Of a DNA stretch of 64,000 nucleotides, positions 20,920-37,351 are shown piece by piece. Source of the stretch: Thermoplasmata archaeon (GTDB lineage: Archaea > Thermoplasmatota > Thermoplasmata > UBA10834). A model generated the notes under the pieces. That model was given only the letters and a program-made list of their open reading frames with translations, did no database searches and was not told where the DNA came from. The stretch covers positions 7,479-71,478 of the forward strand of contig JBFYNF010000045.1 of the NCBI GenBank assembly GCA_041304525.1, written 5' to 3'. The first letter of the stretch is position 1. The number at the start of each line of letters is the position of its first letter. The position numbers were made by a program, and so were the translations under genes.

Positions 20920-21534
20920 ATGAAGAAGATATCCAAACCCAGAAGGGTGCGGATGGGCGAAGAGGCCGAGATGGGGGTCGGGACATTGCTGATCTTCATC
21001 GCGATGATACTTGTCGCGGCGGTTGCCGCGGGGGTGCTCGTCCAGACCGCGTATGTACTACAGCAGCAGGCGGAGTCGACAGGAGATCAAGCACTGATGG
21101 AAGTGGCAACGGGATTCAGAATACTCGCGGCGTACGGGGTGACGAACCTATCGGTCCCTGAGGTGACCGACCTATACATCAAGATAACCTTGGCGGCAGG
21201 TAGCCCGGTCATCAACCTCGAGCACGTGATCATCGAGATCACGAACGGCGACAACGACGTTTCGCTGGCGTTCAATGTCACTGGCTCTGATGTGGATTAC
21301 TTCGGCGCGACACAGATCAGGGACACCTATCCCACGAACGACTGGACCACTGGCGAGCCGGGGATGACACAAGGCGACATCGCCCTCATCCACGTGAACC
21401 TTAGTGCGAACAGCCTCAGTCTGGCGTCGCAGCAGCAGGCGGACCTGTTGATCATCCCGAAGCACGGCATACCGACATACCTGTCGGTGGTTGCGCCGTC
21501 AGTGCTCTCGAACACCTACGAGAACCTCACCTAG
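20920..21534 (+). CDS. arlB: archaellin (FlaB/ArlB) 1
   Basis: Class III signal peptide ..EAEMG|[26 protein letters not shown] and archaellin core. RBS GGAGGT upstream. Confidence 0.85.
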   Translation: MKKISKPRRVRMGEEAEMGVGTLLIFIAMILVAAVAAGVLVQTAYVLQQQAESTGDQALMEVATGFRILAAYGVTNLSVPEVTDLYIKITLAAGSPVINLEHVIIEITNGDNDVSLAFNVTGSDVDYFGATQIRDTYPTNDWTTGEPGMTQGDIALIHVNLSANSLSLASQQQADLLIIPKHGIPTYLSVVAPSVLSNTYENLT

Positions 21535-21557
21535 AAGGCTTTGAAGGATGTGATTCC

Positions 21558-22019
21558 ATGAACGAGGACGGGGAAGCCGCGTTGGAAGTGATTTCGGTCG
21601 ATTCGAGGACCAACATCATCACGATGCGGTGGCTCTCGTTCCTCATGGACAAGATTGACCCTGAGGCATTGCCTGAGCTGTTCGTCTTCTACAAGAGGAT
21701 AGGGTGGCTGGGAACGCAGGCAGCCGCGTACATGTCTGCGTTGGCCGAAGGGGCGAAGCCCGAAGCGCCTTCTGAAGAGCAGGCGCTGATGGAAGAGGAC
21801 GTCGAAGACCACAACCTCCTGATAAGGAGAGGGACCGATTCCGGAAAGGAACCGATGGTGGAAGAGGTCGACTGGCGGCTGACGCCCGAGGACCACATCA
21901 AGTGCTGGATGTTCATGATGGAGATAGCCGGATTGGACGTCGATAGGAACACTTGGGTAGAGGTCGACGAGCGCATCAGCCGGTTCGAGAGAAGGCTCGC
22001 GGACTACTACAAGGTATGA
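21558..22019 (+). CDS. FlaD/E-family archaellum accessory protein (ArlE-like)
   Basis: Contains the Arch_fla_DE-type block TMRWLSFLMDKI. C-terminal HIKCWMFMMEIAGLDVDRNTWVEVDERISRFE is homologous to the C-terminus of the FlaC/D ORF at 25285-26442. Confidence 0.6.
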   Translation: MNEDGEAALEVISVDSRTNIITMRWLSFLMDKIDPEALPELFVFYKRIGWLGTQAAAYMSALAEGAKPEAPSEEQALMEEDVEDHNLLIRRGTDSGKEPMVEEVDWRLTPEDHIKCWMFMMEIAGLDVDRNTWVEVDERISRFERRLADYYKV

Positions 22020-22153
22020 TACTCTGTAGGTGCTCCGCCGCTGCGCTGAGAGAGGCAAACATACACACAGGGCATCCGAACGTACCTGGACCAGGCTTCG
22101 GCCAAACCCTTTACAATTCTGATTTTCTCCCGTGAAAATCACGGCTGGTCGCC

Positions 22154-22365: not shown

Positions 22366-24087
22366 ATGGGGCTTCGCAAGATCCGACAACTGAGGGCACA
22401 GGACGAAGAAGCCGATATCGGTATCGGTACTCTGATCATCTTCATCGCGATCGTACTAGTGGCGGCCATTGCGGCATCGCTCATACTGTACGCGGCCGCG
22501 CTGCTCCAGGAGCAGGCTGAGAGGACCGCGGACGACGCAGTATCGGAAGTGGCTGGTGGCCTGTCGGTCATCAACATAGCGGGTGACCGAAACCCGGACG
22601 GAGAAGCGTCGACGATAGTCTCGGGATACATGCCGGTGACTGACAACCATGCGCCCATCGGTGGAATACTATGGAATGTCACAGCCTCGACCGACGGGAC
22701 GTCAGTACTAGGGGTTGCCCTGAACTGGACCCCTGCGAACGATTTCGGGTCAGGGTTGTACGAGGAGATCGTGTACCGCACCTCCGTGTACGATCCCACC
22801 AACCCGGCCGTATTCAACGAACAGATCGCAAGGAACCGTCTCTTGACGCTCGACCAGCTGAACCCATCCATGGAGCTCGTCAGGCTCGGCGCGGGTTCCA
22901 GGTCTACCGTCCAATACACTGACTACACCGTTAGGGACGACAACTCGACCTCCTACGCCTACGCCATAGTGGGCGTGGACAGGGCGGGGAACGTCGTACT
23001 CTACACAGCCATCGACAGCTCCACCTCCACGGACGGCTCGTCGCATGACGAGGACCTCGTGCCGCCCTCCGGCGGCTCGATGACGAGCACTGCCAGGCCC
23101 GACGAATATTCAGTGGCGCTGTTCTGGGTGCCTGCGAGTGACGGCGCGAGCGGAATAGATGCTCAGAGGCTGTACAGGACCGAGGGGGCTGTGAGCTCTC
23201 TGCCTATAACCATCCAGGATGGAAGGACCGTGGTGACTGTCCCAGTCACGGTGACACTCTTGGAGGAGTTCAATTCCACCACATCGAGTCACGTCGACGC
23301 TCCCTCTGAGATCGGGGTGTACACGTACTTCATCGTGGTCCGAGACAACGCTGGGAACGAGGAGTTCATCGGCACCCTCAGTTACGACGCGCAGACGGTC
23401 GATTCGAACCCGCCCGAGAACGCAGGGTCGGTATCCGTCAGACAGGCCCCACAGTCAATGAACATATCCTGGACGGAGGCGACCGATGCGCAGACGGCTG
23501 TCTCTTCGTACCTGATCTTCAGGAGCACGAGTATCGGCACCCTTGACACGATTGAAGAGCTCATGACCATGGCGCCGTTGGCGGAGCTCGACTCGAGCGC
23601 CGGGAACTACTCCGACTACTCCGGTACGTCGGGCACGCTCTACTACTACGCAGTCGTGGCAGTCGATTCCGCCGGCAATTACGCTCAGTCCTCGATGCCA
23701 TCCAACACCATACAGATGATCGAGATCAAAGTCAAGACCGTCCCGGGAAGCAGGCCTGTGCAGTTCACGACCATGATGATCGAGATAACCGATGGCATGA
23801 CCGATGTCACCCTGAACTTCAACTCCGGTCAGTTGGGGGCCTCCGGCGCGACCGCCACCATGTTCTCCGCAGAGATCCTGAGGGATCCCGACAGCACCTT
23901 CGCCACCACATTCTCACTCTACGATGGTGCCCTAGTGAAGGTCTTCATCGACGCGGGCGAGATTGGATTGAGCCTGCATGCGGACTCGTCGTTCTCCCTC
24001 AAGTTCATACCGGCAATCGGGCAGCCGACCCTCGAGGAGTGCAGGATACCATACCTCGGTACGTATAGGTACGTAATACTCGTGTGA
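22366..24087 (+). CDS. arlB: giant archaellin (573 aa) with FN3/Ig-like central insert
   Basis: N-terminus ..EEADIG|IGTLIIFIAIVLVAAIAASLILYAA (class III). C-terminus IEIKVKTVPGSRPVQFTTMMIEITDG..VTLNFNSGQ matches the conserved archaellin C-domain. About 330 aa of FN3-like beta-repeats lie between. RBS GGAGAGGA. Confidence 0.75.
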   Translation: MGLRKIRQLRAQDEEADIGIGTLIIFIAIVLVAAIAASLILYAAALLQEQAERTADDAVSEVAGGLSVINIAGDRNPDGEASTIVSGYMPVTDNHAPIGGILWNVTASTDGTSVLGVALNWTPANDFGSGLYEEIVYRTSVYDPTNPAVFNEQIARNRLLTLDQLNPSMELVRLGAGSRSTVQYTDYTVRDDNSTSYAYAIVGVDRAGNVVLYTAIDSSTSTDGSSHDEDLVPPSGGSMTSTARPDEYSVALFWVPASDGASGIDAQRLYRTEGAVSSLPITIQDGRTVVTVPVTVTLLEEFNSTTSSHVDAPSEIGVYTYFIVVRDNAGNEEFIGTLSYDAQTVDSNPPENAGSVSVRQAPQSMNISWTEATDAQTAVSSYLIFRSTSIGTLDTIEELMTMAPLAELDSSAGNYSDYSGTSGTLYYYAVVAVDSAGNYAQSSMPSNTIQMIEIKVKTVPGSRPVQFTTMMIEITDGMTDVTLNFNSGQLGASGATATMFSAEILRDPDSTFATTFSLYDGALVKVFIDAGEIGLSLHADSSFSLKFIPAIGQPTLEECRIPYLGTYRYVILV

Positions 24088-24566: not shown

Positions 24567-25181
24567 ATGCAGAAACTAGCATGGAAGAAGAGGAAGATGG
24601 AAGAGGAAGGTGAGATGGGTGTTGGTACCCTTCTGATCTTCATCGCCATGATACTCGTAGCCGCTGTGGCCGCGGGTGTACTGGTTCAGACCGCATACAA
24701 GTTGCAGCAACAGGCTGAGAGCACCGGTAACGAGGCACTGCAGGACGTCGCCACGGGCTTCAAGGTCCTGACTGTCTGGGGAACCACGGGCACTGGTGGG
24801 AACATCACTGACGTGTACCTGAAGATCGCCCTTACGGCGGGCAGCCCCGGCATCAACCTTGCAGACGCCAAGATCGAGGTCATACAGACAATCGGCGGAA
24901 CCACTGCCTCTGAAGTGACCCTTGATTATGTGGACGGCGCGCCATCGGCATCGGCGTTCAACGCAACTGTGCTGAGGGACATGGCTCCGTCGACGACTGC
25001 CGCGATGATGACCTCTGGCGACATATTCCAGGTCCACCTTGACCTCGAGACGATGGTCATGGGTCTGGATGTCCAGGAGCAGCTCTCTGTGTTGCTGATG
25101 CCGAAGCACGGTGTCCCAACACTGTGTGAGATAACTGCGCCCTCGACGCTCGAGGCAAGCAGCGTGGTTGTCCTGAAGTAG
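24567..25181 (+). CDS. arlB: archaellin (FlaB/ArlB) 3
   Basis: [18 protein letters not shown]|[26 protein letters not shown]; near-identical signal and N-domain to archaellin 1. RBS GGAGGAAGAAAG. The track ORF starts further upstream (24387) without archaellin-like sequence. Confidence 0.85.
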
Positions 25182-25284: not shown

Positions 25285-26442
25285 ATGGCTGGCCTGTTCC
25301 GCAAGAAACCAGAGAAAGACGGTTCCTCCGCAAGAAGGAAGCTGAAAGGCTTCGAGGAGGGATTCGAAGAGGAGGCGGAAGAGGGGGCCTACGAGGAGAC
25401 TGAGACTAGCCAGAGAGCCGACAAACTCGTCAGCGCGGAAGATGAAGACTACTTGGGAGAGGACGAGGCCAGCGGCGCAGGTCTCGCAGGCGTCAAGGAG
25501 CTAAGCGAGCTCATGGGACGCCTGGAGGAGATCGAGGACAAGATGGGCCGGATCGACTCCGCTCTCACAACGGATCGGAACGAGAATGCCAAGGTCCGGG
25601 ACCGGCTCAATCAGATGGAACAGGACATCAGGAAGCTCCTTTCCGTCTACGAGGTCGTGTCCACCAAGTTCAACCCCTTCCTAGATGTCTCCGAGAAGAC
25701 CCCCCCACCTGTCCAGCCCCAACCGGCTGTGATGCCTGAGCCCGCTCCGTTCGCTCCAATCGAGCTGGACGGGGACATACCGGAGTTCCGGCCATATCAG
25801 GAAGGGGAAGTGGAGCCGCCCACCTTCAATGGCAAAGGGCCCAAGGCCAGCCGCGACGCCGCCCCGTGGGAGCCAGGGACGTCAACCGCTACCGTTGAGA
25901 CAGTGTTCTCCGGACCCAGGAGAGAGCCCCCACCGACACTCGACAAGACCTCGAAGGACGAGAAGTATGAAAGGCAGGTGAGAGCGTCCGCGAGGAGCAA
26001 ACACAACAAGAAGCCGCTCCTTGCGTACATCCCACACGACTACCTGACGCTGGTCCTCGTGATGCGCTGGATAGAGTTCCTGTTCGAGCGCGTGACCAGG
26101 GAAAGGATGTCGCTCGTGCTAGACTACTATGTCGATGTAGGATGGATCAGCGAGGACGTGAAATCAGAGATCATGTCCTACGCGCGCGGAGAAATGCAGG
26201 ATGTGACCAAGTACATGGGCCAAGAGGAGGTAAGGGAGGACGTGTTCCGCGACCTCCCGCCGCCGACAGCGGCCCCGTACAAGAAGGTCGAGGACTGGCG
26301 TCTGTCCGCAGACGACCACCTGAAGTCCCTGCTGTTCGTGCAGAAGATAGCCGGACTAGAGGTTGACAAGGACCGCCTTAACTCCCTCGAACAGAACATC
26401 TCCAAATTCAAGGAGAGTCTGGAGGGCTTTCATGGGGTTTAG
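25285..26442 (+). CDS. FlaC/FlaD-like archaellum accessory protein (N-terminal FlaC-type coiled coil, C-terminal FlaD/E domain)
   Basis: Coiled-coil block LEEIEDKMGRIDSALTTDRNENAKVRDRLNQMEQDIRKLLSVYEVVSTKFNPF is FlaC-like. C-terminus has LVLVMRWIEFLFERV and ..LLFVQKIAGLEVDKDRL homologous to the ArlE-like ORF. Confidence 0.7.
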   Translation: MAGLFRKKPEKDGSSARRKLKGFEEGFEEEAEEGAYEETETSQRADKLVSAEDEDYLGEDEASGAGLAGVKELSELMGRLEEIEDKMGRIDSALTTDRNENAKVRDRLNQMEQDIRKLLSVYEVVSTKFNPFLDVSEKTPPPVQPQPAVMPEPAPFAPIELDGDIPEFRPYQEGEVEPPTFNGKGPKASRDAAPWEPGTSTATVETVFSGPRREPPPTLDKTSKDEKYERQVRASARSKHNKKPLLAYIPHDYLTLVLVMRWIEFLFERVTRERMSLVLDYYVDVGWISEDVKSEIMSYARGEMQDVTKYMGQEEVREDVFRDLPPPTAAPYKKVEDWRLSADDHLKSLLFVQKIAGLEVDKDRLNSLEQNISKFKESLEGFHGV

Positions 26443-27622
26443 TGTCTCGGCTACAATGGCGATATTCTTCGCCGCCTTTCTAATCCTTTTTTCTATTCTT
26501 TATTCCTCTTTGAACGACGCCTTCGACTCTGTGTCGGAGTCGTTCGATGAGAAGTACGAATACATGAACGATCGACTCGATACGCAAGTGACGATACTCG
26601 ACGTCAGTTACCAGAGGGACTCAAACACCCTAGATATCAGGGTCCAGAACACTGGCAGCAAGGTCCTGGACATATCCAAGGTCGACCTGATTCTGGAAGG
26701 GGCCATCCCCACGTCGTTCAATAAGACCATCCAGGGGACGGACACAGAGGTTTGGCTCCCGACTGAGGTCCTCACGATCACTGTCGATGATCCCGATGTG
26801 TCATTCGAGACTGACCTCGACCCGCGCGCTTCGCTCACCAATGACGCCTCCCTGTCTGCCCCCTCGAATGTCTCCGTTGGAGAGAGCGTCTACGTCCTGG
26901 ATGGACAGGACATAGATGTCTTCACGCTCGGAGGTGTCTTCGATTTCACGATTACAGACTCATCAAACATGGTCTCGCCCTCTGACCTGAAAGTGTGGGG
27001 AGATTATCTCTACGTACTGGACGAGGGCACACACATCGATCGGTTCGGACTCGACGGGGCTTGGGTGGACCGGATAGTGAACGACACGACGAACTCGTCC
27101 ATCCTGACCTCATTCAGCGTCGATTCCGAGTACATATACATCATAGACAACAGGAGCCACATCGACCGGTATGGCCTGGCCACAGGAATATTCGTGGACT
27201 CGATTGTGCCGAACGGAGGCACGATGACATCGCCGCGAGACATCTTCGTCAGCTCGCACATCTTCGTGATCGACTACAGTTCGGGATACCATGTTGACGT
27301 GTACGAGCTGGACGGCAGCGGAGGGACGGAGTTAGTCGGCACGGTAGGGCTCTCGTCGCCAACGGATATCTGTGCCAGCGCGAACGGCCTGGACGACGTG
27401 TATGTGTATGTCGTCAACGGATCGAGCGAGGTGGCCGTGTTCAACGCAACGGGGTCGCCCGTGGACATAGTCGACAGCCTGCTGAGCGACTCTGTGATCG
27501 CCGTAGACGTCACAGGCAAGATGTATGTCTCTGACAATGTGAATGGACTCGTCGTGGAGAACCTGGGTACTAACATCAAAGTGGTGGTAGAGAATGGAAT
27601 CTCATGTGTCACAGTGCAATAG
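26432..27622 (+). CDS. FlaF (ArlF)-like protein fused to a C-terminal NHL-repeat beta-propeller
   Basis: N-terminus MGFSVSATMAIFFAAFLILFSILYSS and the following beta-sandwich match FlaF. From about residue 170, five or six repeats of the type YVLDGQDIDVF / YVLDEGTHIDRFGLDG / YIIDNRSHIDRYGL / FVIDYSSGYHVDVYELDG / YVVNGSSEVAVFNATG are NHL-like. Confidence 0.65.
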   Translation: MGFSVSATMAIFFAAFLILFSILYSSLNDAFDSVSESFDEKYEYMNDRLDTQVTILDVSYQRDSNTLDIRVQNTGSKVLDISKVDLILEGAIPTSFNKTIQGTDTEVWLPTEVLTITVDDPDVSFETDLDPRASLTNDASLSAPSNVSVGESVYVLDGQDIDVFTLGGVFDFTITDSSNMVSPSDLKVWGDYLYVLDEGTHIDRFGLDGAWVDRIVNDTTNSSILTSFSVDSEYIYIIDNRSHIDRYGLATGIFVDSIVPNGGTMTSPRDIFVSSHIFVIDYSSGYHVDVYELDGSGGTELVGTVGLSSPTDICASANGLDDVYVYVVNGSSEVAVFNATGSPVDIVDSLLSDSVIAVDVTGKMYVSDNVNGLVVENLGTNIKVVVENGISCVTVQ

Positions 27623-27625
27623 GAG

Positions 27626-28072
27626 GTGGAGATGATGGGCGCAAGCGGAGCATCGACTCAGCTGATATTCTTCATATCCGCGTTGATCGTGGCAACGGCA
27701 GTAGTCGCCGTGGCCGCCAACGGGGTGTCCAAGATAACCAACGGGATAGACCAGAAGAGCGATAATGTGGAGAAGGATCTGCTGACGGACATTTCGATAA
27801 TAAACGACCCTGACGAGATCCCGAACGACCCTGTCAGGATATATGTCAAGAACGTGGGCAAGACCGTCCTGAACCAAAACTATATCACAGTAATGCTGGA
27901 TGGGTTTGCGGTCACGAACTACACGCTGACGCTGAGCGGGAGCACGTTGTCCTACTGGGACCCCGCGAGCATGCTGACGATATCAATAGACCAGAATTTG
28001 GCAGAGGGGGACCATTCGGTACAGGTGACCACCGAGAACGGCGTCTCTGACAAGCTCAGCTTCCGCATATGA
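27626..28072 (+). CDS. FlaG (ArlG)-like protein
   Basis: Hydrophobic N-terminus QLIFFISALIVATAVVAVAANG followed by a beta-sandwich domain; position between FlaF and FlaH. ATG at 27632 with AGGAGGTGG RBS is the likely true start. Confidence 0.7.
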   Translation: MEMMGASGASTQLIFFISALIVATAVVAVAANGVSKITNGIDQKSDNVEKDLLTDISIINDPDEIPNDPVRIYVKNVGKTVLNQNYITVMLDGFAVTNYTLTLSGSTLSYWDPASMLTISIDQNLAEGDHSVQVTTENGVSDKLSFRI

Positions 28073-28076
28073 CGGG

Positions 28077-28787
28077 GTGAACCCTCCAATGGGGGAGACC
28101 TACAAGCTACAGATACCCAGAGACGACCTACATGACCAGCTAGGTCAGGGCCTCCCCGCGGGAACGATAACGTTGGTCGAGGGAGCGCATGGGACCGGAA
28201 AAAGCGCCCTCGTCCAGCGGATGATCTACGGATTCCTTTCGAACCAACACTCGGTAACGTGCATATCGACGGAGCTGACCGTCAGGGACTTCATCAACCA
28301 GATGTACTCGCTCGACTACCCCATATCCTCATGGCTCCTGAACGGGAAACTGAAGTTCGTGCCTGTGTACCCACTCGTGGGCAAGGCCAGGAAGAGGAGC
28401 GACTTCCTGGGCATGCTGATGGGCTCCGAGGAACTGTACAAGAGTGACATCATGATCATAGATACCTTCTCCAGCCTCGTCAGCAACAGCCTTCATGGGG
28501 AAGACAACAGCATAGGTGTGCTGTCATTCTTCAAGAGACTCACCGGCATGGGTAAGAGCATCGTGGTGACAGTGGACCCGACTGAACTGGACCCTAAGGC
28601 GCTCGCACCGTTCGAGTCGGACAGTCACGTGTATTTGAGCATAATCGTGTCACAGGTCGGCGGGATGATATCCAGGAGCATCATGGTGAAGCGGTTCGGT
28701 GGCACCGAGTACAGGGTGTCCCCGGTCGTGGGCTTCAGGATAGAGCCTAATGTGGGCATGGTCATCGAGATCACATCAGTCGTGTGA
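28077..28787 (+). CDS. arlH: FlaH (ArlH) KaiC/RecA-like ATPase
   Basis: Walker A LVEGAHGTGKSALV and RecA-like core. Conserved operon position before FlaI. Confidence 0.8.
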   Translation: MNPPMGETYKLQIPRDDLHDQLGQGLPAGTITLVEGAHGTGKSALVQRMIYGFLSNQHSVTCISTELTVRDFINQMYSLDYPISSWLLNGKLKFVPVYPLVGKARKRSDFLGMLMGSEELYKSDIMIIDTFSSLVSNSLHGEDNSIGVLSFFKRLTGMGKSIVVTVDPTELDPKALAPFESDSHVYLSIIVSQVGGMISRSIMVKRFGGTEYRVSPVVGFRIEPNVGMVIEITSVV

Positions 28788-28797
28788 GGTCACGGTC

Positions 28798-30429
28798 ATG
28801 GCGGCGAAGTTCAGCAAGGTCCTGGAACGGAATCCCCACCTGAACGTCTATCTTCAGAGATACGCTCAGGAGACAAACCAGTCGCCGAAGTTCATGGACA
28901 CACTGGGCAGGGATCTCGGGAAGGAGGCGACCGTGGATGTCATCTACCCTGTCGGCGACCCGATATTCATACACCTGCACGGCTCCAAGGACACCGGGCA
29001 CAAGTACGATGTCGTGCAGCCAATGATGGAGGACGAGCTTGGCAAAGCGTACGAGAAGGTCGTCAATAATGTCTTCTTGAAGTCAGGGAAGGAGAAGATC
29101 CACTCGACCGATGAGGAGTTCAACGAGGTCCTGGACAAGCTCCTGAACGAAATAGTCGAGGTCACAGAGAGACGCATCCCCTCGAAGGTCGTACAGCTGT
29201 TCAAACCCAACTCCAAGATCTACGTCACCCCAGATGACTACAGCATCCTGGAGTACTACGTCAAGAGGAACATCCTCCAGAACGGCATCCTCGAACCGAT
29301 ACTCAGGGACCCGTACATAGAGGACATCCACTGCGTCGGCGTCAGGGAGGTGAACCTGTACCACAAGATCCTGGGCATGGTGGAGACGAACATCAAGTTC
29401 TCGAACGTCTCAGACCTGGACAAGTACACCAAGGGGATGAGTGAAAGGATGGGTCGTCCCGCATCGATATCGAGACCGATCATCGACGGCGCCCTCCCGG
29501 ACGGTTCCCGTATCAACATCATCTACGCTGACGACGTGAGCGTCAACGGGCCGACATTCACCATCAGGAAGTTCTCAGCGGAGCCGCTGAGTGCCGCTCA
29601 ACTCTCTGGATGGAACACTGTCTCCGCGCAGGAGGCCGCATACCTCTGGCTCTGTCTCGAGAACGGCATGAGCGTGTTCGTCTGCGGTGAGACCGCCTCA
29701 GGTAAGACGACCCTGCTCAACGCCATATTCCCGTTCATAAGGTACGACCAGAAGATATTCTCGGCTGAGGACACCCTGGAGGTGCAGCCGCCTCACGCCG
29801 TCTGGCAACAATTATCCACAAGGGAGTTCGGCCCGGAGGAGAGCAAGGTGGACACCTTCGCCCTCCTGAGAGCTGGACTCAGGTCCAGACCCAACTACAT
29901 CATCGTGGGTGAGATCAGAGGGAAGGAAGGGAACGTCGCGTTCCAGGCGATGCAGACTGGCATCCCGGTCATGGCGACATTCCACGCCGCCTCCGTCAAG
30001 AGGATGATACAGAGGTTCACCGGCGCCCCGATCAGCGTGCCCATCACGAGCATGGACAACCTCAACGTGGCGGTCTTCCAGGCGGGCGTATACAGGAACG
30101 GGAAGTTGATCAGGAGGACCCTGTCCATCGAGGAGATACTGGGCTACAGCGAGTCGATGGGCGGAGTGATGACCAGGGCAGTCTTCGTATGGAACCCGGT
30201 GAGCGACCAGCACATATTCCGAGGGATGAACAACTCGTTCATACTGGAGGAAAGGATCGCCGTCAAGAGGGGGTACAAGGACAAGAGGGACATATACAAG
30301 GAACTCGCCCTCAGGACCAGGATCATCGAGAAGATGGTCGAGACGAACATGACCTCCTACAAGACAGTCAACGACATCCTCAAGGCATTTCAGAAGGAGG
30401 GAGTGGCCGGCCTGCCGTTCACGGTCTGA
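28798..30429 (+). CDS. arlI: FlaI (ArlI) archaellum assembly/motor ATPase, copy 1
   Basis: Secretion ATPase of the type II/IV family: Walker A VCGETASGKTT and Walker B/His box. N-terminus MAAKFSKVLERNPHL. Confidence 0.9.
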   Translation: MAAKFSKVLERNPHLNVYLQRYAQETNQSPKFMDTLGRDLGKEATVDVIYPVGDPIFIHLHGSKDTGHKYDVVQPMMEDELGKAYEKVVNNVFLKSGKEKIHSTDEEFNEVLDKLLNEIVEVTERRIPSKVVQLFKPNSKIYVTPDDYSILEYYVKRNILQNGILEPILRDPYIEDIHCVGVREVNLYHKILGMVETNIKFSNVSDLDKYTKGMSERMGRPASISRPIIDGALPDGSRINIIYADDVSVNGPTFTIRKFSAEPLSAAQLSGWNTVSAQEAAYLWLCLENGMSVFVCGETASGKTTLLNAIFPFIRYDQKIFSAEDTLEVQPPHAVWQQLSTREFGPEESKVDTFALLRAGLRSRPNYIIVGEIRGKEGNVAFQAMQTGIPVMATFHAASVKRMIQRFTGAPISVPITSMDNLNVAVFQAGVYRNGKLIRRTLSIEEILGYSESMGGVMTRAVFVWNPVSDQHIFRGMNNSFILEERIAVKRGYKDKRDIYKELALRTRIIEKMVETNMTSYKTVNDILKAFQKEGVAGLPFTV

Positions 30430-30443
30430 TCCGCGTTTGCTGG

Positions 30444-30509
30444 CACTGATAGTCAGGCCTGAGAATTGGGCGCCAACCCTTATTACTTCAGGTTCTGGAT
30501 TGGCCTTTG
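30444..30509 (+). promoter_or_regulatory. conserved promoter/start module A (shared with 34185-34252): TGATAGTCAGGC..GAGAATTG.GCGCCAA.CCTTAT, about 22 nt, then start codon and GCCACCG
   Basis: About 36 of 41 nt identical to the element before the surface-protein gene. Same spacing (22-24 nt) from the TTAT(T/G)A box to a start codon (TTG 30507), consistent with a BRE/TATA and leaderless start. Confidence 0.5.
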
Positions 30510-30608
30510 AGGCCACCGAGCGCAGGCTCCACAGGGCTACCTCCGCCCAAGGGTGCGGCATTGGCTCTGCTCAGGAGCCGCTTGAGGCGCCTCAGCGGAT
30601 GGGTGAGG

Positions 30609-32258
30609 ATGCCTGCAGACGAAGCTGGCCTGAAGAAGGCCATGAGGAAGAACCCGCACCTCCTTGAATACGTCCAGGAGTTCGTCAGCAGACACAGGTC
30701 GCCTCCAGAGTTCCACCCCGTGGTCGAACGCAAGATGGGGGACGAGCAGCAGGTCAACGTGATCTACCCGATAGGCGACCCGCTCTTTGTCCATGTGTTC
30801 TCGACAGATAGCATACCCATCAGCTACAAGTCCGTGCAGCCGCCGATGACGCCGGACCTGCAGCCCAAGTACAGAAAGGTCATCCAACAGGTCTACAACA
30901 AGGCCGTCTACATGGACCCGCACGAATCTGTGGAGGAGTTCGAGAAGAATCTCCTGCAGCTGATAGACGCCTCGACAAAGATCTCCGAGAGCAGCACGGA
31001 TGGCGACGGCAAACGCATCTTCGGCGACCTTTTCACGGAGCCAAAGATATTCGTCACCCAGCACGAGCAAGACCTGATCAAATACCATGCGAAGCTGGCG
31101 ATTGTGCTAGCAGGACCCCTTGAGCCACTCCTCAGAGACCCGTACATCGAAGATATCCACTGCATCGGACACGACAACGTCTCCATCGTCCACAAGATAT
31201 TCCAGGCGATGCCGACCGATGTGAAGTTCGAGTCGATGGAGGAACTCGACAACTATGTTCGGGCCTTGAGCGAGAGGATAGGCAGGCCGGCGTCGATGGC
31301 TAGGCCGATAGTGGACGGTACGCTTCCTGACGGGTCACGTATCAACCTCATCTACGCTGACGATGTGAGCGTCAAAGGCCCCAGCTTCTCCATCAGGAAG
31401 TTCGCCGAGGAACCTATAAGCATAACCCACCTGATCGAATGGAACACCATCAGCGCCCAGGAAGCCGCCTACATATGGCTCTGCCTGGAAGAAGGCATGA
31501 GCATATTCTTCTGCGGGGAGACGGCGTCGGGCAAGACGACGACCATGGGCGCGGCCCTCCCATTCATCAAGTACGACAGCAAGGTCTACACGGCCGAGGA
31601 CACCATCGAGATGCAGGTTCCACACAAGGTGTGGCAGAGGTTGGCAACGCGGGACTTCGGCCCTGAGGAGAGCAGGGTCGACACGTTCTCACTGCTCAAG
31701 GCCGCTCTAAGATCGAGACCGAACTTCATCATAGTCGGAGAGATTAGGGGCAAGGAAGGGAGCGTTGCGTTCCAGGCCATGCAAACGGGCCACCCCGTCC
31801 TGTCCACGTTCCACGCGGCATCGACGAGGAAGCTCATACAGAGATTCACCAGCGACCCCATCAATGTGCCCATCACGTTCATAGACAACCTGAATGTCGC
31901 GTTCTTCCAGGCAGGCGTGTACAGGGAAGGTAAATTCCTGAGACGGACGATGTTCATTGATGAGATCGTCGGGTACAACGAAGCGCTAGGCGGGATCATG
32001 ACCCGGACCATCTTCCTGTGGAACGCCGCGGACGACTCTCACATGTTCAAGGGGATGAACAACTCCTACATCCTCGAGGAGAAGATTGCGGTCAAGAGGG
32101 GCTACAGTGACAAGAGGAAGATATACGGTGACCTGGCCCTCAGGACCAAGATACTCGAAGAGATGGTCTCCAGGAAGATATTCAAGTACGAGAAGGTGGC
32201 GGAGATAACCAAGGAGTTCCAGAAGAAGGGGGTGAGCGGCCTACCGTTCCCCGTGTAG
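30609..32258 (+). CDS. arlI: FlaI (ArlI)-family ATPase, copy 2 (tandem paralogue)
   Basis: About 60-65% identical to copy 1 over the ATPase core (GRPASMARPIVDGTLPDGSRINLIYADDVSV...CGETASGKTT). ATG 30609 aligns with the copy-1 N-terminus. An in-frame TTG at 30507 adds 34 Arg/Pro-rich residues and sits at the conserved promoter-module spacing, so the true start may be 30507. Confidence 0.85.
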   Translation: MPADEAGLKKAMRKNPHLLEYVQEFVSRHRSPPEFHPVVERKMGDEQQVNVIYPIGDPLFVHVFSTDSIPISYKSVQPPMTPDLQPKYRKVIQQVYNKAVYMDPHESVEEFEKNLLQLIDASTKISESSTDGDGKRIFGDLFTEPKIFVTQHEQDLIKYHAKLAIVLAGPLEPLLRDPYIEDIHCIGHDNVSIVHKIFQAMPTDVKFESMEELDNYVRALSERIGRPASMARPIVDGTLPDGSRINLIYADDVSVKGPSFSIRKFAEEPISITHLIEWNTISAQEAAYIWLCLEEGMSIFFCGETASGKTTTMGAALPFIKYDSKVYTAEDTIEMQVPHKVWQRLATRDFGPEESRVDTFSLLKAALRSRPNFIIVGEIRGKEGSVAFQAMQTGHPVLSTFHAASTRKLIQRFTSDPINVPITFIDNLNVAFFQAGVYREGKFLRRTMFIDEIVGYNEALGGIMTRTIFLWNAADDSHMFKGMNNSYILEEKIAVKRGYSDKRKIYGDLALRTKILEEMVSRKIFKYEKVAEITKEFQKKGVSGLPFPV

Positions 32259-32265
32259 GTCCTCC

Positions 32266-33927
32266 ATGGCTGCGAGCAAGATGAAGCGTCTCTACCAGTC
32301 CCTCGACATGCCCGTTGAGAAGTACTTCACGAGATACGCTCTCCCGCTCGTGATAGCGGGCATCGGCGCGACTGCCCTGCTGGTCTTCCTATTCCCCGAA
32401 CTGGCGGCCGATGGGCTGTTCAAGTATGTGTTCCTGGCAATCCCTGTCCTCTTCTCGGTCGTGGCAGTAATATACCCGATGCTACAGGGTGAACGGAAGA
32501 AGGTCCAGATAGAAAGGAACATGCACCTGTTCCTCGTCAGGATGAGCGTCCTCTCGACATCGAAGCTGCCAAGGAAGAAGATGCTCGAGATCCTTTCGAA
32601 GGTCAAGGAATATGAAGCGCTCAGCCTTGAAATCGAGAAGATCTACAAGCTCATGGAATACTGGAACATGGGTCTCTCGGACGCCGCGAGGACCGTCTCC
32701 CGCAAGACTCCCTCGCCGATGCTAGCAGATTTCCTCGACAGGCTCGCGCACTCATCCGATGCGGGCGAGGACCTCGAGGAGTTCCTCACCAAGGAGCGGG
32801 AGGTGTCCATGAGCGTCTACATCAACAAGTACGAGACGGCGCTCAAGGACCTCGACCTGCTGAACGAGATATTCGTCGCCGTGCTGATATCCCTGATGTT
32901 CATCCTCGTGTTCGTCGCGCTCCTGCCCGTGTTCGTGGACATATCCATCACCCTCATTCTTCCGGGCGTCGCGCTGCTGTTCGTCATCGTCGAGGGGATG
33001 GTGCTGTATCTGGTCAAATCGCTACTTCCATCGGACCCCATATGGCACAACATCAAGGGGCAGACCGAGATCGACAAGGTGATGAAGTCCGTCCTTCCGG
33101 CGACATACGCGGCATGCATCGGGTTCGCCGCCTTCGGGTTCCTGACGGGCTTACCCCTGATGCTCATAGTCGCGCTTGTCGTCACACCGCTCCTGTATCC
33201 AGGGTTCATGATAAGGAGGGAGGAGAAGCGGGTCAGGGCCAGGGACGAGAACTACGATTCGTTCATGAGGGCCGTGGGCAGCTACGCGGCATCTGCTGGC
33301 TCCGCGGTCACGGATGGCGTCGGCAGGCTGAGCAAGCACGACTTCGGGGAGCTCTCGGAAGGCATAGTGATCCTGTACAAGCGCCTGCTCACCCGGATAG
33401 ACCAGATACGCGCCTGGAACCTGTTCGCAGCCGAGAGCGGGAGCAACCTGATCTCCAAGTTCACGGAGATGTATGTCGTCGGTCTGTCCGTGGGCGGGAA
33501 GGTGGACAAGGTCATCGACATCATCAGCGACAACTTCGTGAAGCTGATGGGCGTCAGGCGCAAGAGGTACCAGTCATCCGACAACATGCTGGGGACATTG
33601 TATGGGATGTCCGTCGGCATAACGTTCACCTTGTTCTCCGCGCTGAGCCTGATGCAACTCCTGAACATCATGAACGAGCAGTTCGCGCTCTCCCAGACGA
33701 CGATCAATCTGCCCATCGCGCTGAAGCCATTCGACCTGGGCCTGGCTGAGGCGGTCTTCCTGCTCATCATGCTCGTGCACTCGCTCATATCCGCGAACCT
33801 CGTCTCCTTCGCCGGCGGCAGCCACAAGCATAGTTTCTACATCAACTTCGCAATCATAACATGGATCAGCACCGTGACGGCCATCGTCACACAGTTGATG
33901 CTCGACAAGGTCCTGAACCTCTCATGA
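32266..33927 (+). CDS. arlJ: FlaJ (ArlJ) polytopic membrane platform protein
   Basis: 553 aa with two TadB/C (T2SSF)-like halves and multiple TM helices. Immediately follows the FlaI genes. Confidence 0.85.
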   Translation: MAASKMKRLYQSLDMPVEKYFTRYALPLVIAGIGATALLVFLFPELAADGLFKYVFLAIPVLFSVVAVIYPMLQGERKKVQIERNMHLFLVRMSVLSTSKLPRKKMLEILSKVKEYEALSLEIEKIYKLMEYWNMGLSDAARTVSRKTPSPMLADFLDRLAHSSDAGEDLEEFLTKEREVSMSVYINKYETALKDLDLLNEIFVAVLISLMFILVFVALLPVFVDISITLILPGVALLFVIVEGMVLYLVKSLLPSDPIWHNIKGQTEIDKVMKSVLPATYAACIGFAAFGFLTGLPLMLIVALVVTPLLYPGFMIRREEKRVRARDENYDSFMRAVGSYAASAGSAVTDGVGRLSKHDFGELSEGIVILYKRLLTRIDQIRAWNLFAAESGSNLISKFTEMYVVGLSVGGKVDKVIDIISDNFVKLMGVRRKRYQSSDNMLGTLYGMSVGITFTLFSALSLMQLLNIMNEQFALSQTTINLPIALKPFDLGLAEAVFLLIMLVHSLISANLVSFAGGSHKHSFYINFAIITWISTVTAIVTQLMLDKVLNLS

Positions 33928-34184: not shown

Positions 34185-34252
34185 ACATGATAGTCAGGCG
34201 CGAGAATTGAGCGCCAAACCTTATGAGTGGATAGACCTGATTTTGACATATG
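34185..34252 (+). promoter_or_regulatory. conserved promoter/start module B (paralogue of 30444-30509)
   Basis: CACATGATAGTCAGGCGCGAGAATTGAGCGCCAAACCTTATGAG, then 24 nt, then ATGGCCACCG (start of the 1033-aa surface protein). Contains the internal GGCGC..GCGCC inverted repeat. Confidence 0.5.
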
Positions 34253-37200
34253 GCCACCGTGAGTAGGACGGCGCTCACGAGCACGATGCTCGTTGTTCTG
34301 CTCCTCCCGATGACGCTCATGGTCCTGCTCCAAGGACCGCCGGCGCCGTCCGCTCACGCATTTCCCATAGACGATTTTGGGAGCAGCATCAGACTCACTT
34401 TCGACCAAGCCATATCGACCAACGTATCCTCCAGCGTGGATGACGACGGCAATATACACGTCGTGTGGGAAGACTACAGGTCCGGGGCCGGGGACATCTA
34501 CTACATGAAGCTGGACGACGAAGGCAACAAACTCACCAACGACGCGAAGATATCCAACGACACCACCGCATCCCGGAACCCATCGGTGGCAGCTGACTCG
34601 GACGGACACATATACATCGTGTGGGAGGATGTGGACAACGGCTCGTCTGAGCTATTGTTCGCGAAGCTGTGGTACTACGAGGGCAACATCACATTCCAGG
34701 AGAATGGGCTCCAGGTATCGGACAGCGACCCCGCGAACTCGACTGAGCCGGACATCGCCGTGTGCCAGGACGGCAACCTATCCTTGGTTTGGACCGACGC
34801 TCGGCACGACGCCGGCGACGGCAACCTGGAGATCTACTATAAGCGCCTGAGGATGTCAGGGACCTCTCTCACACCCGATACGCGCGTGACTGGAGACGTT
34901 GGACGGTCTGAACACCCGAGGCTCGATACAGACTCTGATGGTATGGTCCACATCGTCTGGTACGATTTCAGGGACTCCAGTAACGGCCTGGTGATCAACC
35001 ACGGCGTGTTCTACAGGAAGGTCATAATGGACGGCACGCCCCTGACACCCGAGACGAGGATCACCTTCGCTTCACCTCAGTCGAGGCCTGACATAGCAAT
35101 AGACACTGATGGAAACGTACACGTGGTCTTCGACGACGACCGGTATGCGAGTTTCGACATATTCTACACGCTCCTCGACCCTGACGGGAACACACTCGTG
35201 GATGACAGGAACATCTCACCCAAAGACGACAACGAGTCCAGATGCCCCAGGATAGCCCTGAGCGACTCCAACGCAGTCGATGTCGTGTGGCAGGACCAGA
35301 CGTCCGGTCTATGGGCCATCCACTACTCCGCGATGAACTACAACGGTGAAATCGAGGTCTACGACCAAGGACTGACTTCAGAAACGGTCGGGAACGCCAC
35401 CATCCCTGTGGCGATGTGCGCGAATGACAACAACACCCTCGTGATGTATGTGGGCGACTATCCGAACATGGAGGTGTTCTTCTCAAGGACTCACAGGCCG
35501 GATCCGGCGGTGCTCGCGGGCGGGATTTCCATGTCATCCACCCAACCACTGATCGGGACCACTGTCTGGGTCAATGCGACCGTGTGGAACCTCGAAGGGG
35601 ATGCCCTAACGGATCTGGCTGTCCGCCTGATGGTCGATTCGGTGGCGGTCGAAGACGCCACTGTAGCCTACCTAGTAGCAGGGCACTCAACCGTCGTCAG
35701 TTTCTCACACACAGCGTCCGAAGGCGAGACCATCGTGACTGTGGCCGTCGACCCTGATCAGACCGTAAGGGAGACATTTGAGACCAACAACCAACAGTCA
35801 GCCCCTATGCTCGTCCGGACGCCCGGGGTCGTTCTGACGTCCGACGTCAGCAGCCAATCTGCTGAGCCCGACGAGACGGCCATATTCAACATCACAATCA
35901 CCAACGAAGGCAACACGGCGTTCTCATTCTGTCTGTCGAACTCCGAACCTGAGAGCGGCTGGATCATTGACCTGGGTGGCTCGCCTGAGGGCATCTACAC
36001 GGTTCCCGCAGGCTCGTCGGCCGTGGCTACTGTTGAGGTCACGGTTCCCGAGGATGAGACGCCTGGAGCGCGTGCGTTCTCCGTGCTCGCCACATGCGTC
36101 GAAAGAGACTCCGTCAACGACAGCGTCACCCTCATGGTGGATGTCGTCAGGTTCGGCGAACTGACTGTTGTATCGTCCGACGGAGGAGATGTCGAGCCGA
36201 CCATCCCTGAGCTATACACGTTCACTGTCTCAAACTCGGCCAACGCCAATGAGACCTTCGCGGTCTCGGCCTCCGACCTCCTCGGATGGGACCTCGTCGC
36301 TTCCCATGACGAGCTGGAGCTCGCACCCGGTGAGGAGGCTGAGGTGTCCGTGCTCGTGACGCCTGCTAGGTACGATCCCCCGGGCACACTGAATACGCTC
36401 ACGTTGACCCTGTCATCCATGAACTTGACCTGGAACACAGTGGAAGGGAACTTACTCATGATCGTGGGGCATCACTGGGAGGTCGACGCCAAGCTGACGC
36501 AACAGGCGTTCCTCAACATGTCTGTGCCAGATGAGAGAGAGGTCAGGTACATCCTCGATGTGACGAACCTAGGCAACTCAGATGATGTGTTCAGGCTGAG
36601 TCTATCGGGGATTGATGCGTTCTGGGCCACCCTGAACACGACCTATGTGTTCCTCGGAGCCGGGGACGAGCAGCAAGTCTACATATCCCTCACACCAGGC
36701 GTGGACGTGCTCGCAGGCGCATACCCTTTCAATGTGACCGTCGTGTCGGAATCCGACGACAATGCGACGGAGACCCTGGAGATGGGAGTGTCCGTGTTGC
36801 CGTTCTACGACATCTCAGTATCGGCTGAGTTCGCACAGGTGAGCCTACGACGAGGAGAGACCGCGTTCGTCAACCTGACGGTCCGGAACACCGGCAATTC
36901 GGCGGATGTCGTCGACCTGTACGCGTACGTGGGCGCCCTAAACACGACAACGGCTACCTTTGTGGGTGAGGTGGTGTCACTGGAAACGGGAGACCCCATC
37001 CTCATCGCTCTGGAACCCGGAGGGTCTGCCACAATCATGCTGACGATACCGGTTCCCGGAGATGTCGAGATCGGCTTGCAGGACTTGTGCATGGACTTCA
37101 GTTCCATGACCGACCCGAGCGTTATGGCATCTCAGACCGTCAGTGTGCTAGTAGAGGATGACCCGTCTTGGTTCACTCTGTGGGTCATACTGATCATAGT

Positions 37201-37351
37201 CGGCGCAGCAGTGGCCGTCGTGGTCCTCGTCGTGTTCCTGATACTCAGGAAGAGGAGGGCAGAGGAGGTCGCAAGGGAGGAGGAGCGGCGGAAGATGCAG
37301 GCAAGGAAGAGGCCTCCGGGGCCCCCGAGGGTCAAACCGAAAGCGCCGTGA
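34250..37351 (+). CDS. large cell-surface protein: signal peptide, six-bladed beta-propeller-like repeats, CARDB-like and several Ig-like domains, C-terminal TM anchor with basic tail
   Basis: Six repeats of the type D.DG..H(I/V)VW.D.R.G..DIYY. Segment ..VTVAVDPDQTVRETFETNNQQS matches the CARDB E.nE.NN end. Many N-x-S/T sequons. End is WVILIIVGAAVAVVVLVVFLILRKRR. Confidence 0.7.
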   Translation: MATVSRTALTSTMLVVLLLPMTLMVLLQGPPAPSAHAFPIDDFGSSIRLTFDQAISTNVSSSVDDDGNIHVVWEDYRSGAGDIYYMKLDDEGNKLTNDAKISNDTTASRNPSVAADSDGHIYIVWEDVDNGSSELLFAKLWYYEGNITFQENGLQVSDSDPANSTEPDIAVCQDGNLSLVWTDARHDAGDGNLEIYYKRLRMSGTSLTPDTRVTGDVGRSEHPRLDTDSDGMVHIVWYDFRDSSNGLVINHGVFYRKVIMDGTPLTPETRITFASPQSRPDIAIDTDGNVHVVFDDDRYASFDIFYTLLDPDGNTLVDDRNISPKDDNESRCPRIALSDSNAVDVVWQDQTSGLWAIHYSAMNYNGEIEVYDQGLTSETVGNATIPVAMCANDNNTLVMYVGDYPNMEVFFSRTHRPDPAVLAGGISMSSTQPLIGTTVWVNATVWNLEGDALTDLAVRLMVDSVAVEDATVAYLVAGHSTVVSFSHTASEGETIVTVAVDPDQTVRETFETNNQQSAPMLVRTPGVVLTSDVSSQSAEPDETAIFNITITNEGNTAFSFCLSNSEPESGWIIDLGGSPEGIYTVPAGSSAVATVEVTVPEDETPGARAFSVLATCVERDSVNDSVTLMVDVVRFGELTVVSSDGGDVEPTIPELYTFTVSNSANANETFAVSASDLLGWDLVASHDELELAPGEEAEVSVLVTPARYDPPGTLNTLTLTLSSMNLTWNTVEGNLLMIVGHHWEVDAKLTQQAFLNMSVPDEREVRYILDVTNLGNSDDVFRLSLSGIDAFWATLNTTYVFLGAGDEQQVYISLTPGVDVLAGAYPFNVTVVSESDDNATETLEMGVSVLPFYDISVSAEFAQVSLRRGETAFVNLTVRNTGNSADVVDLYAYVGALNTTTATFVGEVVSLETGDPILIALEPGGSATIMLTIPVPGDVEIGLQDLCMDFSSMTDPSVMASQTVSVLVEDDPSWFTLWVILIIVGAAVAVVVLVVFLILRKRRAEEVAREEERRKMQARKRPPGPPRVKPKAP

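Follow-up and report, generated by a model that had tools for sequence, protein, structure and literature searches.

Two ArlI/FlaI ATPase genes in the archaellum operon of a Thermoplasmata lineage and the case for a possible mixed ring

Does an archaellum always run on one kind of ATPase? The archaellum is described as having 'a single cytoplasmic ATPase' (PMC11607397). This is ArlI (FlaI), 'the sole candidate for powering assembly and rotation' (PMC8978795), and every archaellated genome of a 2016 census carried a single FlaI gene ('a single copy of each'; Makarova et al., 2016, PMC4858521). Two questions are open: by what means one and the same homohexamer can assemble the filament and also rotate it, and how the six-fold ArlI ring is coupled to the probably dimeric ArlJ (PMC8978795; PMC11607397). 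In our study, a stretch of 64,000 nucleotides (nt) from a Thermoplasmata archaeon of the UBA10834 lineage (contig JBFYNF010000045.1, assembly GCA_041304525.1), called the window below, was found to contain two full-length arlI paralogues between arlH and arlJ in one archaellum operon. An original prediction, made from this DNA alone, had described the pair and had set it against the norm of a single FlaI per locus. Coordinates and family scores agreed with the description, and the norm is the published one. The two-ATPase archaellum core is real, conserved among the relatives and recurrent in other archaea, and the locus departs from the published ArlI anatomy in copy number. The accompanying motif changes are suggestive of a mixed ring made of two kinds of subunit. 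No published account of arlI/flaI paralogue pairs was found in the accessible literature, including that on motility in UBA10834 and on flaI of Methanoperedens. The core genes of the window are as follows (lengths in amino acids, aa).

28077..28787, + strand: arlH (KaiC-like regulator), single copy; NCBIfam ArlH 248 bits, cut-off 215
28798..30429, + strand: arlI-1, 543 aa; BLASTP, Pfam, NCBIfam and motif alignment
30609..32258, + strand: arlI-2, 549 aa; BLASTP, Pfam, NCBIfam and motif alignment
32266..33927, + strand: arlJ (membrane platform), single copy; NCBIfam ArlJ/FlaJ 554 bits, cut-off 550

The two ArlI proteins and their conservation

The pipeline annotation of both genes was generic ('type II/IV secretion system ATPase subunit'). 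Scores, fold, motifs and gene context place both proteins in the ArlI/FlaI family. Both matched Pfam T2SSE and passed the NCBIfam FlaI equivalog NF058587 (725.3 bits for copy 1 and 709.0 bits for copy 2, cut-off 550) over profile positions 2-527 of 527. The best match of copy 1 among sequences of solved structures was S. acidocaldarius FlaI. The AlphaFold models of both copies, which were of moderate confidence (predicted local distance difference test, pLDDT, 74.6 and 74.1), gave FlaI 4IHQ/4II7 as the top Foldseek matches (E = 1.5e-43 and 1.8e-46, alignments of about 530-540 columns), and both proteins contained the FlaI-type N-terminal domain followed by the RecA-like C-terminal domain. The PilT model TIGR01420 gave 54.6 and 65.0 bits for the two window proteins against a cut-off of 319.1, the AIRNLIRE-type (AIRN) motif was absent from both in a motif search, and the model of BasE, the archaeal bindosome ATPase, reached 156 bits against a cut-off of 1000. 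The possibility that the second copy was a pilus or bindosome ATPase that had landed in the operon was rejected, since both copies pass the FlaI equivalog and form sister clades.

The two proteins were found to be 56% identical over their full length (BLASTP, E = 0). Identity between the copy-1 and copy-2 clades was 72% for residues 291-410 and 71% for residues 231-290, and only 23-37% for residues 1-165, a region that is 60-68% identical within each copy clade. The conserved N-terminal RNPHL motif was retained in both copies. The originally predicted identity of 60-65% in the ATPase core was thus slightly low for the core and too high for the whole protein, and the relatedness itself holds. 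Of the predicted lengths, 543 aa for arlI-1 and 549 aa for arlI-2 stood. The longer form of arlI-2, 583 aa from TTG 30507, was ruled out, since the N-terminus MPxxDxGLKKAMRKNPHL is kept in 12 orthologues and begins at ATG 30609, and the reading frame upstream of it overlaps conserved non-coding elements.

A locus scan with one genome per GTDB species gave 79 loci. The order arlH-arlI-arlI-arlJ was found in every contig of the window clade that was long enough (Thermoplasmata metagenome-assembled genomes, including isolate UBA10834), so that the comparison with related genomes placed the duplication in every relative whose contig was of sufficient length. Gene order was identical in 12 other related loci from independent assemblies, the window and 11 of them being complete; one of the related loci, L010, is of the same species as the window organism (98-99% identity). 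Three closed chromosomes among the related loci carry the pair (CP070732, CP070736 and CP070748). Each paired locus had one arlH and one arlJ.

A neighbour-joining tree with 200 bootstraps, which is weak at depth, placed the copy-1 and copy-2 orthologues in two clades with 100% bootstrap each. These were sister clades within ArlI, and together they formed a further clade with 100% bootstrap, all other ArlI falling outside. Both copies were already present in a deeper sister group, made up of L012 and two metagenomic contigs. The tandem duplication is old and specific to this Thermoplasmata lineage, because the joint clade excludes other ArlI and because the deeper sister group has both copies. 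The DHVE2/Aciduliprofundum loci contained a single ArlI, and the distance to the outgroup DHVE2 was equal for both copies (57.5% and 55.5% identity). Identity within the clade was 85% for copy 1 and 83% for copy 2, and the ratio of nonsynonymous to synonymous substitution (dN/dS), taken from unsaturated comparisons, was 0.05-0.07 for each copy, indicating purifying selection.

Irregular sequences were found in two related loci. L009 (DUKU01000024.1, isolate UBA9653) was 96.6% identical to window positions 26452-29927 and continued from its position 3476, inside the arlI-1 core, with unrelated sequence; a chimeric assembly, with the join in a conserved stretch, is the probable cause. In L016 (8119-9760), arlI-1 was split into two reading frames near residue 234, by a sequencing frameshift or by a real disruption. 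These two cases are what could be cited for an assembly or binning artefact or a decaying pseudogene, an explanation that we regard as practically eliminated for the window. A collapsed repeat was rejected, since the copies are only 56% identical and the order is kept in the 12 related loci, three closed chromosomes among them. Decay was rejected on the intact motifs, the intact reading frames of both genes and the low dN/dS.

Catalytic motifs and a reciprocal pattern at one contact

In both window genes the Walker A motif GETASGKT, the Asp box (S/T)AEDT(L/I)E, the atypical Walker B motif with the catalytic Glu ((Y/F)IIVGEIRG) and the second His-box histidine were intact. These elements and the RSRPN segment were kept in 49 copy-1 and 34 copy-2 sequences, and 53 positions were fixed differently between the two copy clades. 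arlI-1 contained a canonical P-loop, GETASGKTT (29686-29712), the catalytic Glu372, which aligns with S. acidocaldarius E336, the residue changed to Ala in 4IHQ, and His396. The first histidine of its T-G-H-x6-H His box (position 389) was substituted by Ile (QTGI, codon 29962-29964), and by Asn or Leu in the sister group, so that copy 1 keeps only the second histidine. In arlI-2 both histidines were present (T-G-H canonical, His395) and the catalytic residues were kept, whereas the residues directly after the P-loop were altered (GETASGKTT-TMG against the conserved -xLN; L307M and N308G, in the core clade only). The original prediction of intact Walker A and B motifs was therefore borne out. 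On closer alignment no catalytic residue acting in cis was found to be lost; the Ile at the first His-box position of copy 1 had gone unnoticed, and this substitution is tolerated in single-copy ArlI elsewhere.

In the first sample, T-G-H and the P-loop GETASGKTT were each found in 51/51 single-copy ArlI. Loss of His389 was considered as a mark of an obligately dependent subunit. This held in the first 79 loci, where all His-less proteins were paired, and was rejected after a wider search (1.84 billion representatives and a profile search), in which single-copy His-less ArlI was found in complete operons: TGA/TGT in the Thaumarchaeota-like L080-L082, TGI in L083/L084 and TGL in L087. The representatives were at 50% identity, which is too coarse for counting His-less lineages. 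Loss of His389 is therefore compatible with a lone ArlI, and by itself, on these sequences, it is no proof that ArlI-1 is inactive or depends on a partner; the first histidine of the His box is thus not strictly family-defining.

Two further observations were made in the wider search. L087 looks bacterial, with a response regulator carrying a GerE domain nearby, and recalls the reported archaellum clusters of Chloroflexota. Many ArlI-like representatives were 680-1270 aa long and were broken exactly after FQAMQ, with Cys or Ser in place of the Thr of T-G-H (P0147, P0149, P0153, P0155, P0157, P0162, P0166, P0167, P0170, P0172, P0178-P0180, P0182, P0188 and P0192). The break looks like a recurrent intein insertion site, in a motif that differs between the window paralogues.

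Paired ArlI operons were found in six groups of loci, including the window clade. The Methanoperedens-type pairs comprise twelve loci (L036, L038-L041, L043-L046, L048, L050 and L056), to which L069 is added; the genes lie 6-21 nt apart in the Methanoperedens pairs and 6-30 nt apart when L069 is included. The other groups were a Thermoplasmatota group (L052, L058, L076, L078 and L079), Hydrothermarchaeota-like loci (L055 and L061), L073, and L085 with L086, where the gene order is arlH-arlI-arlJ-arlI. Pair identities in these lineages were 43-58%. In the tree, the window duplication was distinct from all other pairs and the Methanoperedens duplication was nested in Methanosarcinales, which points to at least three independent duplication events. 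An ancient shared 'ArlI-B' uniting the P-loop-variant copies across phyla was also considered; the pairwise identities are saturated (43-52%) and support neither its presence nor its absence. The upstream copy of Methanoperedens was found to lack, in addition, the conserved D230/D235/N240 of the PIIDGxLPDGSRIN segment.

Departures in the P-loop region and in T-G-H never coincided in one protein: in each of the six paired lineages they were divided between the two paralogues. They are given below by lineage.

Window clade: altered T-G-H in ArlI-1 (TGI/IGN/AGL); altered P-loop region in ArlI-2 (GETASGKT(T/S)-TMG)
Methanoperedens and L069: altered T-G-H in the downstream copy (AGN/SGN); altered P-loop in the upstream copy (GETA(S/C)GKTA)
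L073: altered T-G-H in the downstream copy (TGL); altered P-loop in the upstream copy (GESACGKTS)
L085/L086: altered T-G-H in copy a (TGV/TGI); altered P-loop in copy b (GESGCGKTT in L086, canonical in L085)
L055/L061: altered T-G-H in the upstream copy (AGH); altered P-loop in the downstream copy (GESASGKTS)
Thermoplasmatota group: altered T-G-H in the upstream copy (AGH in 1/5); altered P-loop in the downstream copy (GE(A/S)ACGK(S/T))

Six opposite assignments would arise by chance at about 1/64 if all six lineages were independent, and there may in fact have been fewer independent events. With the numbering of G. metallireducens PilB calibrated on PDB 5TSG, PilB T327 corresponds to ArlI T299, the third P-loop residue, and PilB T411/H413/H420 correspond to ArlI T387/H389/H396. 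In PilB, T327 is reported to contact T411 of the neighbouring packing unit; T411 lies between two histidines, and cooperativity between chains is mediated by the His box (McCallum et al., 2017, PMC5424180). In the Legionella DotB, an alternating alpha-beta hexamer, Thr251/His253 of subunit n+1 touch Walker A, Walker B and the His box of subunit n (PMC6153414). Because the PilB and DotB structures place the P-loop and T-G-H opposite each other across the subunit interface, beside the bound nucleotide, the two motifs are two faces of one contact.

Promoter-like module and layout of the archaellum cluster

The spacer between the two arlI copies was 179-215 nt long in the window and the related loci. 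The original prediction had given arlI-2 a promoter-like module of its own, and such a module was found conserved in this spacer in the window and in 15 related loci, in 13 of which it was aligned. In L003 it was present just downstream of arlI-1, at the contig end.

30447..30486, + strand: cis module, TGATAGTCAG-N3-TGAGAATTG...CAAC-CC-TTATTAC (upstream element and TATA-like box); conserved block
30509..30521, + strand: GAGGCCRCCGAGC element at the predicted transcription start, about 25 nt after the TATA-like box; alignment and pattern search
34188..34227, + strand: second copy of the cis module; pattern search

The order of the module was TGATAGTCAG-N3-TGAGAATTG, followed about 12 nt on by the TATA-like TTATAAC/TTATTAC, then GGAT, and then GAGGCCRCCGAGC at the expected transcription start. 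The leader of arlI-2 would run for about 100 nt to ATG 30609, with GGTGAGG just upstream of the ATG. The pattern matched the window 2 times, against 0.14 expected by chance. A module of about 40 nt (TGATAGTCAG-N3/4-GAGAATTG, then the TATA-like box) was present twice per cluster in the window, L002, L004-L006, L010, L011, L013, L015 and L016. The TATA-like box of the second module was located 29 nt 5' of ATG 34250, the start of a surface protein gene, in the window and in 10 related loci; this spacing has the geometry of a putative leaderless archaeal promoter. The module is predicted to act as a promoter, and it looks like a shared regulator site with a promoter that would define a small regulon. 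It was not found before the archaellin genes in the clusters of the window and its relatives. A structured 5' leader RNA before arlI-2 was also considered and set aside: RNAalifold gave only short helices without covariation, and Rfam gave nothing relevant.

The window was found to contain a complete archaellum cluster on the + strand (three arlB, arlCDE, arlF, arlG, arlH, arlI-1, arlI-2 and arlJ). The genes around the core are as follows.

20920..21534, + strand: first arlB, archaellin gene, 204 aa; Pfam Arch_flagellin E = 1.3e-26, kept in relatives
22366..24087, + strand: giant archaellin-like gene, 573 aa; Pfam Arch_flagellin 3.4e-15, residues 17-87
24603..25181, + strand: archaellin gene, about 192 aa from an internal ATG; Pfam Arch_flagellin 3.3e-27, tblastn map
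25285..26442, + strand: arlC/D/E fusion (FlaC and FlaD/E domains); Pfam FlaC_arch 5.1e-18, Arch_fla_DE 1.3e-21
26363..27622, + strand: arlF-like gene with a long C-terminal extension, 419 aa; Pfam Arch_flagellin 5.9e-08, residues 25-150
27626..28072, + strand: arlG, between arlF and arlH; Pfam Arch_flagellin 2.8e-16
34250..37351, + strand: surface protein gene, 1033 aa, CARDB, BNR-like and Ig-like domains and a C-terminal anchor; Pfam

The C-terminal region of about 480 residues in the giant archaellin-like protein gave weak Ig/fn3-like matches (Big_13 and fn3, below the Pfam cut-off), and its orthologues were found at the same position in the relatives with 51-93% identity. For the archaellin gene at 24603, the mechanical open reading frame begins at GTG 24387, and the Pfam match starts only at residue 75 of this long frame. 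Orthologues of the surface protein were found directly 3' of arlJ in 11 loci of the clade (55-89% identity); this secreted, anchored protein may be an archaellum-associated surface component. The ArlF-like stator protein, 403-419 aa long, was far longer than the adjoining ArlG of 148 aa, and its C-terminal extension was repeat-rich (YxxD-like). The long form was also present in L085 (3629-4840) and L086 (3600-4811), and so occurs in two different lineages, that of the window and that of L085/L086, each with two ArlI genes. On the - strand, between the first and second archaellin genes, an open reading frame of 203 aa (21531-22142) gave no Pfam match; its conservation in the same place in the relatives was weak (31-37% identity).

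One ring or two

ArlI/FlaI of S. acidocaldarius (4II7/4IHQ), P. furiosus and H. volcanii resemble the window proteins in domains, motifs and arlH-arlJ setting. However, these characterised systems have one ArlI per locus, whereas the window has two diverged paralogues, of which ArlI-1 is without the first His-box histidine, and its arlH-arlI-arlJ core is split by an internal promoter-like module. No paired locus has more than one arlH or arlJ, so the two ATPases must share one platform. Both copies would be working ATPase subunits of one motor with a single ArlH and a single ArlJ. We tentatively favor, at somewhat less than even confidence, a heteromeric ArlI hexamer, a mixed ring whose two kinds of subunit touch each other and drive one motor on this core. 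More tentative still is the wider reading that the heterohexameric ring is obligate, with non-equivalent sites, and arose convergently in this clade, in Methanoperedens and in several other lineages by complementary changes at one nucleotide-sensing contact. A mixed ring would contain two non-equivalent kinds of active site, an asymmetry encoded in the genes that in the homohexameric relatives consists only of alternating conformations. The diverged N-terminal 'crown' domains would provide two kinds of contact with ArlJ and the membrane, and the conserved internal promoter would allow expression of arlI-2 and arlJ to be set separately. Co-assembly, subunit order and any functional consequence are predictions from sequence. 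The original prediction had named three mechanisms. The evidence leans to the heteromeric ring, separate ATPases for assembly and rotation are still compatible with it, and an ATPase for a second filament has little support because arlH and arlJ are single.

Two separate homohexamers could take turns on one ArlJ, like PilB/PilT/PilU on PilC, one building the filament and the other rotating it (or driving opposite directions of rotation). Both tasks normally fall to a single ArlI, and in S. acidocaldarius ArlI rotation, unlike assembly, depends on the first 29 residues (PMC8978795); in the window pair the N-terminal 165 residues are the most diverged, far more between than within the copies, and the internal promoter divides arlI-1 from arlI-2/arlJ. 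The tandem PilT/PilU give a precedent with evidence against heterohexamers (PMC6762196), and the His-less single-copy ArlI suggest that such a protein can work alone. Separate homohexamers would, however, be expected to compensate within one protein, as in the single-copy L082, where both faces are altered together (GEVASGKT and TGT), yet the changes are split between the paralogues in all six paired lineages, as co-evolution across a hetero-interface would predict. Neither copy has the PilT hallmarks (no AIRNLIRE, and 55-65 bits against 319 with the PilT model), both keep RNPHL, and we consider this arrangement unlikely, though a serious contender. Condition-specific alternative ATPases (ecoparalogues), or ATPases for different filament types or archaellins regulated through the internal promoter, are a good deal less probable. 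Three very different archaellin genes (204 aa, 192 aa and the giant 573 aa) are present, arlI-2 has a promoter-like module in common with the surface protein gene, and archaellin ecoparalogues are known in Haloarcula (PMC10117864). Against this, arlJ, arlH, arlF, arlG and arlCDE occur only once each, and arlI-2 is joined in an operon with the one arlJ of the cluster and is therefore not dispensable for any filament. The 6-21 nt between the Methanoperedens genes leave no room for a separate promoter and fit the co-translated partners of a mixed ring, and the giant archaellin was not seen in the other paired lineages mapped. That the two genes are interchangeable and are kept for dosage or by chance is very improbable. 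All cis catalytic residues are retained in both and divergence from the outgroups is symmetric, but the copies are only 56% identical against 83-85% within the clades, with the 53 differently fixed positions; both are retained wherever this could be examined across a deep clade under strong purifying selection, and parallel pairs recur with the same reciprocal motif pattern.

Several points weigh against the mixed ring. The reciprocal pattern is weakest in the window pair itself, where the 9-residue P-loop of ArlI-2 is canonical and the changes are confined to the residues that follow it. Some of the six paired lineages may not be independent of each other, as S301C-type P-loops recur and the neighbour-joining tree is weak at depth. 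Loss of the T-G-H histidine appears to need no partner, judging from the His-less single-copy ArlI of the Thaumarchaeota-like operons, L083 and L087. Separate functions would account just as well for the internal promoter and for the strong divergence of the N-terminal domains, and the AlphaFold models (pLDDT about 74) represent monomers of moderate predicted confidence. No established heterohexamer is known from the PilT/VirB11/FlaI superfamily. PilT and PilU, the nearest precedent for a tandem pair, appear to act in separate rings (PMC6762196).

The comparison with known systems bears on both arrangements. PilT and PilU (and PilB/PilT) resemble the window pair as superfamily paralogues, often in tandem, that share one platform protein and became specialised after duplication. 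They differ in that they retract pili, contain the AIRNLIRE-type motif, are without the FlaI N-terminal domain and have genetic evidence against heterohexamers, whereas score and phylogeny place both window proteins in ArlI, and archaella are not known to retract. The homohexamers of PilB, PilT4 and DotB (C2 CCOCCO, C3 OCOCOC and alpha-beta-alpha-beta) contain the same neighbour contact between the P-loop Thr and T-G-H, with non-equivalent sites. Their asymmetry is conformational, in identical subunits, whereas that of the window pair would be encoded by two genes. In the thermosome alpha/beta, a subunit of a homo-oligomeric ring was duplicated independently in several archaeal lineages, and the copies were retained with roughly symmetric divergence. 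The thermosome is of a different family and function, and hetero-oligomerisation of ArlI is a prediction only.

Archaellum motors in which two ArlI evolved repeatedly offer a natural genetic dissection of the assembly and rotation functions. If the mixed ring is true, it would be the first hetero-oligomeric member of the PilT/VirB11/FlaI superfamily of secretion ATPases, and the role of each kind of site could be separated by mutating one gene at a time. If separate rings are true, they would be the first archaeal equivalent of the division of labour among PilB, PilT and PilU. Either outcome revises the published rule of one ArlI per archaellum, which matters for genome annotation.

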